A stretch of 64,000 nt of DNA, taken from the NCBI GenBank assembly GCA_037379345.1, contig CM074521.1, positions 6,448,001-6,512,000 of the forward strand, in the 5' to 3' direction. Positions within the stretch are counted from its first letter, which is position 1; each line of letters begins with the position of its first letter. A program made the translations under genes and the position numbers. The notes beneath the pieces were generated by a model, which had not been told where the DNA came from, made no database searches, and worked only from the letters and a program-made list of their open reading frames with translations. The DNA comes from Perna viridis (taxonomy: Eukaryota). Positions 5,856-14,905 of the stretch are shown here, in pieces.

Positions 5856-6225
5856 CACTACTGTACAAAAAAAAAACGACTGTCCGTACCATAGTCAATC
5901 ATATTTTAACTGATACAGTCCATATATAACTGATAATGACTGTCAGAATGACTGAGGTAGACTGATAATATTGGTACAGTCTTTTGTAGTAACTGTTTAA
6001 GTTAAAATTTGACTGAGTAAGTCACTTTTCAACAGTCTAAACTATTTTGCCTTTAATCATATCGTGACTGATTAAACGTATTGTGCGTTTAAACAAACGT
6101 TTTTGCACTGACTAAACTCATTTTGCGTTTAATCAGACATTTTTGAACTGATTAAATGTGTTTTGCGTTTAATCAGACGTTTGTGGACTGACTAAGCTCA
6201 TTTTGCGTTTAATCAGACATTTAAG
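5856..6225 (+). repeat. Left TIR (~5856-6020) plus ~40-bp palindromic subterminal repeats
   Basis: Unit GACTGATTAAAC-n9-GTTTAATCAGACATTTTTG repeated about 4 times; inverted relative to 14525-14905. Confidence 0.85.
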
Positions 6226-8819
6226 GCTTATTCGAACATTTTTGTAAGTAAATGAATAAATTCATATTCCGTTCATTCGATATCATAACATACCCGTATT
6301 TAAGAACAATGTAAACGCCATCCGTTGATGTAGTTAGTCAATGTAAAGCTGTATCCATGCCGGTGTGGCATATCGCCTTAAAACTTTATAGCTAAATAGT
6401 AAAGTCCCAGGAACCTCTCGCAAAATACATGCATGTAAACCATTGTCAGATCCATGTGGAGGCAATCCGTCAAATCAATGATCGCCGCCACGCCCCCCTG
6501 AAATCCAAATTTTAGATCCGCCATTGTACACATGTAAAGGATAAAATTCCTGATAATAGCATAAATACAATATTGTTTTATTATATATTTGTATCAGCGA
6601 TCCCTGTGGGGTGACAATAATATTACATACATCACACTGTGTACCTATATGCTGGCAGTAAAGACCTCAAATGTACCTTAATTCTTAATTCTGAATGAAC
6701 ATCTTAAAAATGGCAATATATGTATCTTTAAAAAATAAATATTGTCAGTTTAAATGAACTGCTTGCGTTAGTCTTATCTGGTTTCTACAGTTTGAAATCG
6801 TGCAAGCTAAGTCAAATAATGAACCAGATGATATAACTTAAGATATGTAAAATCTTCGAACTACATGTACCTCTCAACTAATCACATCTATTTCTTACAA
6901 ATACATAGCTTCTACGTTACGTATCGTCTCATACACAATGAATCCTGTAAAACACAGCTCTATCATCACAAGTATATCTTTAATACATGTATATCTAATT
7001 TTGAAAACGCATGCATTTTCCTAAGAGCTGTATCTGAAGTTTCGACAATTATAACACCAGATCACAGATTGTCACCATTCCAGAGATGCATTATCTAAAC
7101 TTTTACAAAATCAAATTTTAACTATCATCTTTCTCTAAATGTTACCAGGCCGGAATCATGAAATATTTTTTAAAGACTTGATTAAGATCAGAAATCCATC
7201 TGTACGTTTTAAACTGTTTAATTCCGCGTTTACTGTTTTTCTTGTTTGTTTGCTTGTTTTTTTTTGTTTTTGTTTTTGTTTTTGTTTTCGTTTAGAGGGG
7301 TGTAGGAAGAACACCTTTTGAATATTAATAATAATCTTAGTCTGCGTTGCACATCAGATTGATACGAAGAAATGTTCCATATATTCATAAATTCTGCCGT
7401 TCAGAAATGCAAGTAAAGATAGCGGACACCAAAGGGTAGTTTCTGTTGAAAAAGCTTTGATATGTTAAAAAAATAGAGCAGAATTACGCAATAATAGTCT
7501 GAAACCCCCCTTTTTAGTTTTTGATCGGAACCATCAATTTTTACATGAATAAAGTTTGATATCTGCCCTTTACATTGAATATCGGATCACAACTAGAAAT
7601 ATTCATACTCTTCTGCATCGTTAATCTGTTTTATATTGTGCGATTTCTTCATTTTCTGCCTCATTATAAACACGCCGACATTAATGTGGATATATAATAC
7701 ATGTAGATCATGTAGATATAGATTTATGTAAATAGTTAGTAGAACCACATGTCTTGGGTCTCGCAAGGCAAACATCCAACAAGTTACTGAAATTAAAAGG
7801 CTTTATTCTCCAACTCACATACATGTTCTAGGCAATTGTCATGTTCTTATACATTATATCATTGAAAATAATGTAATATTAATTATGAGTCGCTTTAAAG
7901 TTCAGTTAGTTTGCAGTCATTTATTCACCTTAACATGTATCAATAATCCTTTACCGAAACATTGGACATTTATTTGTTTATAAGGTACATGTACTTGCAT
8001 CGAAACACGCGCTTCAGTAGTCGTAAATATTCTAGGGGGTGGGATTACATATCATATTTCACACTGTGTCTTAATTAGTTTCGCCCATAGTTGTACGAGA
8101 TAAGACGAATTAAGTAATATGACACTTGTAACTTAATTTTATGGTGATAATTATCAATTTTAAGATATTTAGTTATATCAATGTTTTAAATTGAAAAAAA
8201 AACACTATATTTTCTTAAGTTGCAGTAGTGTTGTTTAGCTAATACTGGGACTCTTTTCAGAGGTAACGATCTACTACACAGGAATGTACATAGACTTCTA
8301 TAGTAAATTTGTAGTGGAATGCATAAAAGAATGCGAGGAATGTATCTCTTTCTAGAGAGGGATTTAAGTAAAAAATCTTTACATTTTGATTGGATTATAT
8401 TTAATTGATATATAATAGAGTACCATCTATTTCATGTACCATCTATCACACATACATGTAATAGATGATGGGAAGGTATTGTAATCGATGAATGTGAACG
8501 AACAATGCTATTGGATAAATTAGATAACATATTGGAACTTGTATATGCAAATTTATTATTTGCAAAATCTTTGAAAGGAACAGACGCACAGGGCATTTTA
8601 TCAGGATTGACCAGCAGGCAGATTTAGCCGAGTTACGAGGACGATTTGTAGCTGAAGTGTCTCACTACTACTTTCAAGACGCGCTATTTCTTTCATATTT
8701 TCCTCGTCTACAGAGTGCGTTATGGTTAGATAACCTATGAAAGGAAGAAAGTAGAAAAACGAGATTAATGACAATGATCGCAAAAATGACTCAACTGCAC
8801 CAACGGATGATACGAAAGC

Positions 8820-9830
8820 ATGAATGACAACATACTGAAGAAAACATATCGTGAACTATCTAAAAGTGGGGCATATCTTGGACATGAAAAGTTACGCTTA
8901 GTTTTAAAAAATAAACCTAATGCACCTGGAATTTATAAAATACGTAAATGGCTGTCAGAACAAGATGACTACACGCTGCAGGAAATTTAGACGTGCTCGA
9001 GTCGTCGTGTCAAAACCTATGGAACAATTTCAAGCCGATTTAGCCGACATGACATCACTATCAAAAGACAACGATAATCTTTCGATTGTAATTGATATTT
9101 TTTTCTCGCTTTCTCTTGATTCGACCACTTCGTACCAAGGCGGCAAAAGAAGTTTATCAAGCGCTTGCCTCCGTATTTACTGAGCACAAGCCTTTAAAGA
9201 TTTCTACAGACGGTGGAGGTGACTTCAATAACGGCACTATTTCCAAACTACTAACGAAAAAAACACATTTATCATCATGTCACTTTAAATACGGACGTTA
9301 AAGCAAATTATGCCGAAAGAGTTATTTTAACAATAAAGATAGATATTTTCTGAATAAAAGATCTTATCGATACATTGATATAAAAGAAGATATGGTAAAC
9401 ACATACAATGCTACTCCACATAGATCACTAAATAACATTGCCCCGAGAGATGTCAACGAAGAGAATCAGACCAATATATGGGCTCACATGTATCTGAAAC
9501 CCAAGAAACAATTCATGAACAAACGTAAATTTACTTTAAAAATTGGTGACATGGAGTAGTGAAATTTTTATCGTGTACGACAGGTTTCTTTTCCAAGCCA
9601 TCCCATCTTACTAGTTGAAGTCCTTTAAAGGTGAAATAATACGAGGCACGTTTTATGTCGCAGAGTTACAAAGAGTAAACAAAAACGAAGACACCCTATG
9701 GTTTATAGAAGAGAAAATTAGAAAACGAAAAAGAAATAGCAGAGTTGAATGGCTTGTTAAATTCGAAGGATGGGATGATAGTTACAATACTTGGATTCCC
9801 GAGGAAGATATAAACGATTTGCAAACATGA
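8820..9830 (+). pseudogene. Polinton/Maverick-type retroviral-like (DDE) integrase with C-terminal chromodomain, several frameshifts and deletions
   Basis: Manual translation across frameshifts: MNDNILKKTY..GAYLG..IRKWLSEQDDYTL / RKFRRARVVV..EQFQADLADM..IVIDIF / SRFLLIRPLRTK..KISTDGGGDF / VKANYAERVILTIK / RYIDIKEDMVNTYNATPHRSLNNIAPRDV / [49 protein letters not shown]. The D, D and E catalytic positions and the chromodomain aromatic residues are present. Confidence 0.92.
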
Positions 9831-10250
9831 GTTTCCATATGGTGGTGAACAGTCAAAGGAACCTCGACTTTTTTCCGAACAACACCCCATTTAAATTTTG
9901 GACTCATCTGAACAGTGCGCTTAATTTGAAAGGGAAGTGGAAGGTTGCTCTTGTGAATATAAAACTAGACGTTAATCCTTTATTTGAGCACAAAGACTTG
10001 TATATCTTGCGACTTGTGTAGGGTATCCGTTGTTGATGGGAATTTAAAACCATTATTACGTCGAATTTGTTTACACTCATCCAAAAGTGGATATTATGAA
10101 TTTCTTCATTTGTCGTATATGGACGTTATCAAATCTGACGTGTTTGATATCCAATTCCTTATAAAAGACGCCGAGGGTGATTATTGCTCATTTATCAATA
10201 AACAAGTGACGCTTCAGCTTCATTTCAAATCGCATCCGTTTTTCGCCTTA
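9827..10250 (+). pseudogene. Polinton/adintovirus minor capsid protein (penton, PX-like), one frameshift
   Basis: [45 protein letters not shown]...LYI/SCDLCRVSVVDGNLKPLLRRI...Y..VIKSDVFDIQFLIKDAEG...VTLQLHFK matches the FP.NT...F...L.L.G.W.VAL, PLLR and LHF motifs. The ATG overlaps the integrase stop (ATGA, 9827-9830). Confidence 0.82.
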
Positions 10251-14224: not shown

Positions 14225-14445
14225 TTGTGACATTAACCAGAATCTTGCAAAATGATTTGTGGCGATGAGGTATCAAATTTCAAGATGCAGATCACAGGAT
14301 ACACTGTCGTAGATGGCGAAATGAATAAAACAAGAGACGGACCCGAAATTTTTAGAACGTTTCTAGCTAGGAAATTCAAAGGAAGGGTTCCACGATATTA
14401 TAAGAACAATTTGCCTCACAAGTGTTCAACAAAAGAAGTATGAAA
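14225..14445 (+). pseudogene. Possible decayed BEN-domain coding remnant
   Basis: Across frameshifts: LTRIL/KMICGDEV..ITGYTVVDGEMNK/TDPKFLE/FLARKF..NNLPHKC. This resembles the BEN pattern (..TG....K..LDP....KF....I..KC). Confidence 0.4.
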
Positions 14446-14524
14446 AAGCTAACACGAAAAAAAAAGTCAAAAAGGTTAAATCAAAAAGATTGGACAAAAA
14501 ACATTCGATTAAAACATAATACAT

Positions 14525-14905
14525 GATTAAACGCAAACTAAGTGACAATCCAAACATATCTGATTAAATGCGGATTTGTTTTGTCAGTCTTAAAATGTCT
14601 GAATAAACGCAAAATAAGTTTAATCAGTCCAAAAAGGTCTGATTAACCCAAAATACGTTTAATCAGTCCAAATGTGTCTGATTAAACGTCAAATACGTTT
14701 AATCAATCCAAATTTGTCTGAGTCAATGTAAAATAAGTTTAGTTTATTCTGTCAAGTTTTAACTTAAACAGTCGATACAAAAGGCTGTACCAATTTCATC
14801 AGTCAGAATCAGTCCATTCGTCAGTCATTATCAGTCATACATAGACTTTATCAGTTAAAATACGACTGACTATGGTACGGATAGTCGTTTTTTTGTACAG
14901 TAGTG
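14525..14905 (-). repeat. Right subterminal repeats plus right TIR (~14744-14905)
   Basis: CTGATTAAAC..GTTTAATCAG units; ends TTTTTTTGTACAGTAGTG. Confidence 0.85.

Follow-up and report, generated by a model that had tools for sequence, protein, structure and literature searches.

The Locus

The stretch analysed here, referred to as the window, comprises 64 kb of one Perna viridis contig (C11, 6448001-6512000; positions given without a contig name are counted within the window). It holds a 9,050-bp segment (5856-14905) that carries CACTACTGTAC at both termini (at 5856 on the plus strand and at 14905 on the minus strand) and encloses a block of broken virion genes of the Maverick (Polinton) type. 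The sequence-only reading of this segment offered two explanations: either a cut-and-paste transposon captured the virion genes and spread them, or a single Polinton was nested in the transposon and later eroded by deletion. The genome searches reported below were made in one 723-Mb assembly, and they argue strongly for the second.

The CACTA-type ends and subterminal repeats described by that reading are borne out. The terminal inverted repeats (TIRs) of the outer element, here called the host, align without gaps over 151 nt at 83% identity (5870-6020 with 14744-14894), and a gapped match extends over 371 bp (76%, E 2e-69), taking in subterminal arrays of a 40-bp repeat with about four copies per end. 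The left end (5856-6222, plus strand) consists of a TIR of about 165 bp that starts with the terminal sequence, followed by the array at 6067-6222, and the right end (14556-14905, minus strand) of the array at 14584-14741 and the TIR. Subterminal repeats are a defining trait of CACTA/EnSpm elements. The host is flanked by TAG on the left (5853-5855) and TAT on the right (14906-14908), a 3-bp target-site duplication with one mismatch (two of three bases). Six other host copies have both ends readable; the duplication is perfect in four of them (ACT, TTA, ATA, ATA), keeps two of its three bases in one, and has none in the other. The CACTA superfamily is defined by CACTA ends and a 3-bp duplication (PMC4938662), and the host, with its 5'-CACTA termini, TIRs and 3-bp duplication, probably belongs to it, an assignment drawn only from the ends and the length of the duplication.

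Between two non-coding host arms that are common to other copies of the family (the left arm, 5856-8223, up to the insertion site; the right arm, 11506-14905) lies the viral block, with all of its genes on the plus strand. It opens with a Maverick/Polinton left TIR of at least 90 bp that starts with AGTAGT (8224-8313, plus strand), which both ends of a sister copy on contig C15 match, inverted, with 97% to the far end. There follow the remnant of an accessory open reading frame (ORF; approximately 8470-8820), broken here and open over 119 amino acids in the C15 copy; a gene for a retroviral-like integrase with a C-terminal chromodomain, frameshifted and with stops (8835-9827); a minor capsid (penton) gene with a frameshift near 10007 and 32-38% identity to a natural relative (9827-10250); a likely PW/core gene with a basic C-terminus and one in-frame stop (10256-10681); and a major capsid gene of the double jelly-roll type, which is frameshifted and breaks off at about residue 270 of 437 (10688-11499). 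The accessory remnant is not PC4-like, and a PC4 gene, which stands upstream of the integrase in two relatives, was not found in the window.

Because a Pfam scan of the six frames of 5800-15000, with stops read as X, returned only Chromo (at about 9717-9827) and a related weak family, in one of 18 frames, the identification of these genes needed natural relatives. The intact proteins of another Maverick in this genome, used as tblastn queries, matched the integrase at 8980-9821 (E 3e-23), the minor capsid gene at 9827-10247 (E 4e-17) and the major capsid gene at 10712-11481 (E 4e-31); Pfam finds rve and Chromo in the relative and rve in the C15 copy. The PW/core gene was recognised by its position between the capsid genes and by a weak match (local score 79 in the window, E 6e-4 for the C15 copy). 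The integrase, penton, core and major capsid genes named by the sequence-only reading are thus matched in order by intact Maverick proteins, most weakly for the core gene. Its view of them as pseudogenes also holds, with a switch of frame in each of the integrase, minor capsid and major capsid genes and a stop in the PW frame. Protein searches of the window confirmed that no transposase, polymerase, ATPase or protease is recognisable there, and Maverick protein queries found none of the last three anywhere in the 64 kb or around the C15 copy.

Several traits place the inner block with the Mavericks. It has the AGTAGT terminus at 8224 and a retroviral-like integrase. TIRs of 90 bp and an ACTACT end occur in its C15 sister; the window copy is without the right TIR. 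The 6-bp duplication is unseen in the window, where the right side is deleted, and is present at five of six bases in the sister. The capsid-gene pair, double jelly-roll major and single jelly-roll minor, is recognised through the folds of intact relatives (30-47% identity), which for the major capsid match those of NCLDVs and virophages, and not through folds of the broken genes themselves. The block is a Maverick fragment and not an intact member, because protein-primed polymerase B, the packaging ATPase and the protease are absent from it; a full-length relative carries them downstream of the point that corresponds to the cut.

The Host Family

The host belongs to a CACTA-like, non-autonomous family with dozens of copies in this genome. 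Searches with its two ends gave 92 and 89 candidates, and among the 40 scored in each, the window itself and very short pieces aside, matches were 72-91% identical. The family was compared over 35 stretches at 27 loci other than the window, which share the left and right arms in pieces. Neither the 64-kb window nor any of the 35 stretches yielded a CACTA-type transposase frame. Transposase_21 occurs at five loci in the genome, and these show no match to the host TIRs within about 10 kb on each side and none to the host interiors.

An 18.4-kb host copy on contig C3 carries nested MULE/FLYWCH (L018:3-476) and zf-RVT (L017:8866-9438) fragments. Its MULE/FLYWCH frame was considered as the host transposase and rejected, being present in one of the 35 stretches. 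Several other host copies carry reverse-transcriptase-like inserts, a label given by reading the sequence and not a Pfam result. Since sister copies bear these other inserts, nesting is routine in the CACTA-like family. One host copy on contig C8 (L016, C8:28630579-28636674) has a rearranged structure, seemingly with a left-arm-type end on both sides.

The Left Junction

Similarity to the host ends at 8223, and the next bases, AGTAGT, are the start of the viral block at 8224. The commonest end motif of Mavericks is (AGT)2//(ACT)2, with (AG)3//(CT)3 as an alternative (PMC8097293). This terminus had been overlooked by the sequence-only reading. The 15 bases at the junction have 18 exact matches in the genome: the window, nine unrelated places and eight host copies. 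All eight host copies run on into host sequence (in one, a short deletion intervenes), and three more empty insertion sites were found with mismatches, which brings the other copies with an empty site to 11.

The insertion site (8209-8223 in the window) lies within a perfect 16-bp palindrome in four empty copies (L017, L020, L024, L094), and two host copies (L042, L093) bear short deletions at the same spot. The site of the Maverick insertion may be fragile.

The Sister Copy and the Distribution of the Block

A DNA search with 8600-11560 gave 23 candidates, all of which were scored; besides the window, only the copy on contig C15 covers the block (90-91%), and in the other 21 the match is confined to the final 50-64 bases of the query, which are host sequence. 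A search with the left end returned three candidates, all at the window and C15 loci, and a search with the capsid end found these two loci only. The searches of the assembly yielded no full-length member of this family. By their protein identity to the other Mavericks compared, the window and C15 copies form a separate two-copy Maverick family.

The C15 copy (C15:19704187-19707502, minus strand; L013:4187-7502) is a free-standing Maverick derivative of 3,316 bp. It has 90-bp TIRs, the same AGT start and an ACTACT end, and its flanks, ATGTCT and ACGTCT, form a 6-bp duplication at five of six bases, an agreement expected by chance with a probability of about 0.008. In this copy the capsid gene runs straight into the right TIR, and this TIR-capsid joint is present in all four sequencing runs, from three studies. 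No CACTA end or host arm occurs within the 50 kb examined around it, and its 1-kb flanks match no other sequence in the comparison set. About 350 bp away from the copy are exon-like frames (L013:336-3832, minus strand) whose sequence resembles that of a hexosaminidase of glycoside hydrolase family 20.

The block was matched, by DNA or by Maverick proteins, in none of the 35 host stretches, and of 33 other capsid-like matches the one closest to any of 51 TIR matches is 638 kb away. These results bear directly on the idea that virion genes were captured by a CACTA-like element and spread as its cargo, in the manner of a Pack-CACTA or a Teratorn-like fusion. The CACTA ends can both still be recognised, so that the composite could in principle move in trans, and CACTA-type transposase remnants exist at five places in the genome. 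However, the composite is single-copy and the only other block stands outside any CACTA element, the block has a Maverick terminus of its own, the element is without a transposase, the genes are broken with near-neutral divergence, and the host duplication is degenerate (TAG/TAT). Spread of either type would show as the same cargo with the same junctions at two or more insertion sites, and one composite locus was found; such an element would also hold a transposase along with viral genes that are intact, where there are frameshifts, stops and no transposase. Capture and spread of the virion genes is accordingly judged very improbable.

The first option of the sequence-only reading thus falls, with the block at none of the 27 other loci and its sole other copy free-standing. 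That reading had itself named, as the mark of simple nesting, a Polinton terminus at the junction together with the lack of the block in other copies of the TIR family, and both were observed among the copies examined. Movement of the composite as a unit in trans in other individuals or sister species, spreading Maverick capsid genes, finds no support in this assembly and is given hardly any credence.

The Right Junction and a Full-Length Relative

On the right, the cut capsid gene meets the right arm of the host across a 12-bp tandem duplication (11494-11517). Seven sister host copies have host sequence before this junction, its last few bases resembling the capsid side, and a host copy on contig C5 has 7.76 kb between the two junction points, mostly shared with other copies in pieces. 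The right junction is likely a deletion scar, with the right part of the Maverick and several kb of host missing. Short homology and a small duplication at a deletion would be in keeping with microhomology-mediated end joining.

With an open capsid frame as query, 37 matches were found in the genome. A full-length Maverick of 17.35 kb lies on contig C6 (C6:11020713-11038065; L062:713 to L063:8065), with 193-bp TIRs and a perfect 6-bp duplication. Its ends read ACTAC...GTAGT, which reverses the usual AGTAG motif, and there is an interruption in its polymerase frame. It carries PC4 upstream of the integrase (rve, Chromo), then ORFs of 141, 136 (basic) and 437 amino acids, a 156-amino-acid ORF at the protease position without a Pfam match, an A32-like ATPase and polymerase B. 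The 156-amino-acid ORF is presumably the protease, judging by its position and a motif. The gene order in the window is that of the C6 Maverick, at a protein identity of 30-50%, and the published module order is integrase, minor capsid, PW, major capsid and protease (PMC8097293). The protease-sized ORF, ATPase and polymerase of the C6 element all lie downstream of the point at which the window copy is cut; since they lie beyond the cut, one deletion explains the missing genes.

Structure models of the C6 proteins agree with these assignments to different degrees. The predicted structure of the 437-amino-acid protein (predicted local distance difference test, pLDDT, 82.7) matches the major capsids of iridovirus, PBCV-1, mavirus and Sputnik (E 1e-14 to 1e-12). 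The 141-amino-acid protein (pLDDT 90.6) is modelled as a beta-sandwich, the best match of which is a PBCV-1 capsid chain (E 1.3e-4). Against the mavirus penton this model scores E 2.4e-3 with a template modelling (TM) score of 0.63, and because unrelated jelly rolls score similarly, the predicted structure gives modest support for the minor capsid identity. Among named proteins, the best homologues of a capsid relative from this genome come from bivalves.

Divergence and Selection

The window and C15 viral copies differ by 5.2% over 3,114 aligned sites. The host arms in the window differ by 7.8% and 9.1% from the nearest copy compared, and by 11-12% from most others. These divergences fit insertion of the Maverick into a host copy that was already in place. 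Counted over eight frames open in C15, the 494 silent sites hold 29 differences and the 1,873 replacement sites hold 86, which gives a proportion of silent differences (pS) of 0.059, a proportion of replacement differences (pN) of 0.046 and a ratio of 0.78, with no significant difference between them (Fisher p 0.24). Judged from this count, the virion genes bear no sign of maintenance by selection, and their divergence appears near-neutral.

Nesting and Its Alternatives

We hold with high confidence that this locus arose by simple nesting of a Maverick in one copy of a CACTA-like element, followed by deletion, with no fusion of virus and transposon. We infer the order host, Maverick, deletion. 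The CACTA-like transposon would have inserted first, and the Maverick would then likely have integrated, by its own integrase, into the left-middle part of the host. A later deletion likely removed the right part of the Maverick and several kb of the host middle, with microhomology-mediated end joining as the proposed cause of the right junction, and neutral decay would have followed. The composite, a fossil, likely never moved as a unit. The second option of the sequence-only reading, a one-off nested Polinton eroded by deletion, is in this way upheld by the AGTAGT terminus at 8224 and the scar at about 11500.

Several points weigh against this account. The right Maverick TIR and the right 6-bp duplication are gone, and the insertion is seen from one side only. 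The order of ages uses the nearest host copy among those compared, and closer copies may exist; the pN/pS count uses the frames open in C15 and includes some out-of-frame ends. The distribution of the block was judged from 40 of about 90 TIR candidates scored per search, from 27 loci and from one assembly. Two further points, the position at which the viral copies stop and the coverage of the locus by independent contigs, each lend themselves to a different explanation.

The C15 and window copies break off in the capsid gene at points no more than 140 bp apart (11359 and 11499, respectively), and independent deletions explain ends so close together poorly. Within the nesting account, the inserted unit may already have been a short non-autonomous Maverick of about 3.5-4 kb, moved in trans and made up of a TIR, integrase, minor capsid, PW, part of the major capsid and a second TIR; the local deletion would then have taken its short right end and the host middle. 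Besides the closeness of the two ends, this version draws on the C15 copy, which is a complete TIR-bounded unit of 3.3 kb with a 6-bp duplication, and on the search for a full-length family member, which found none (the three left-end candidates represent two loci). The breakpoints, however, are not identical, the copies number only two, the TIR-capsid joint of C15 may stem from an internal deletion that followed insertion, and no disabling lesion shared between the copies was recognised. A frameshift in the minor capsid gene was considered as such a lesion and set aside, as the two copies shift frame at different places. As a form of nesting, prior shortening is a tenable but doubtful version. 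Neither the full-length nor the shortened insertion involves capture by the CACTA element.

Contigs from four runs, one of which may be the assembly's own sample, were aligned to 7320-12690; the runs come from three studies. Contig depth was greater on the host arms than on the viral block, a difference given no weight because it is no measure of copy number. No contig piece spans the element, and the left junction is absent among the 32 pieces displayed (1,251 more exist), as might be the case if the composite were an assembly chimera of two repeat families. The right junction, by contrast, is bridged by contigs over 11242-11540 in runs X1 and X2 (study P1) and X3 (study P2), with the reservation about the assembly's own sample applying here as well; a contig of run X11 stops at 11517. 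The left junction also falls exactly at the first base of the Maverick TIR, a position that a chimera does not favour. An artefact of assembly is considered highly unlikely, and nesting followed by deletion remains the preferred account.

Further Repeats

Maverick capsid loci also occur as large inverted pairs with two opposed capsid copies (L070-L073, C10:34578000-34617999; L074-L076, C5:38150000-38179999), and further pairs of this kind lie at C6:1703586-1707758 and C10:41717823-41724117. This arrangement suggests that such pairs arise from fold-back duplications. Elsewhere in the window, two inverted-repeat pairs (34783-39998 and 59942-61160) of 152-163 bp and 90-93% identity may bound further non-autonomous DNA transposons, and a strong excess of G over C (skew 0.37-0.41 over 2 kb, 17001-19000) probably marks a simple or tandem repeat.

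Comparison with Known Systems

CMC and Maverick elements are both present in molluscs (PMC5753468, PMC10294476). The inner fragment resembles the vertebrate Mavericks in the AGTAGT...ACTACT ends, TIRs of at least 90 bp and 6-bp duplication, the last in the C15 copy, and in the module of integrase, minor capsid, PW and major capsid; most of those vertebrate elements are degraded fossils (PMC8097293). It differs in keeping only the first 3.3 kb, without polymerase, ATPase, protease or right TIR, and its proteins are 30-50% identical to those of the other Mavericks compared in this genome.

The host resembles non-autonomous CACTA elements (En/Spm, CMC) in its CACTA termini, AT-rich 3-bp duplications and subterminal repeats (PMC4938662), as well as in its many dispersed copies of about 6-18 kb, in which no coding capacity was found. 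Unlike the superfamily at large, it has no transposase tied to it. Its TIRs exceed the 10-54 bp typical of CACTA elements and are closer to those of a family with TIRs of 145-158 bp (PMC4938662).

Teratorn, which joins piggyBac to a herpesvirus, likewise has viral capsid genes between the TIRs of a cut-and-paste transposon (PMC6431247). Its transposase is active, its viral genes are intact, and fishes carry it in multiple copies and subtypes (PMC6431247), whereas the composite described here has no transposase, broken genes, one copy, and a virus with its own integrase and terminus. A search of the literature on CACTA/Polinton nesting, in the portions of the sources available, brought up no case of a CACTA-Maverick fusion.

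Significance

A genuine fusion of CACTA and Maverick would have given Teratorn a counterpart, which this locus does not supply. As one more nested and decayed insertion in a repeat-rich animal genome, it is of little importance in itself. It does offer a caution, in that capsid genes lying between foreign TIRs can mimic a virus-transposon fusion, and that the inner element's own terminus at the junction settles the matter. For the genome of this mussel, it documents a Maverick family of two copies alongside a non-autonomous CACTA-like family of many.

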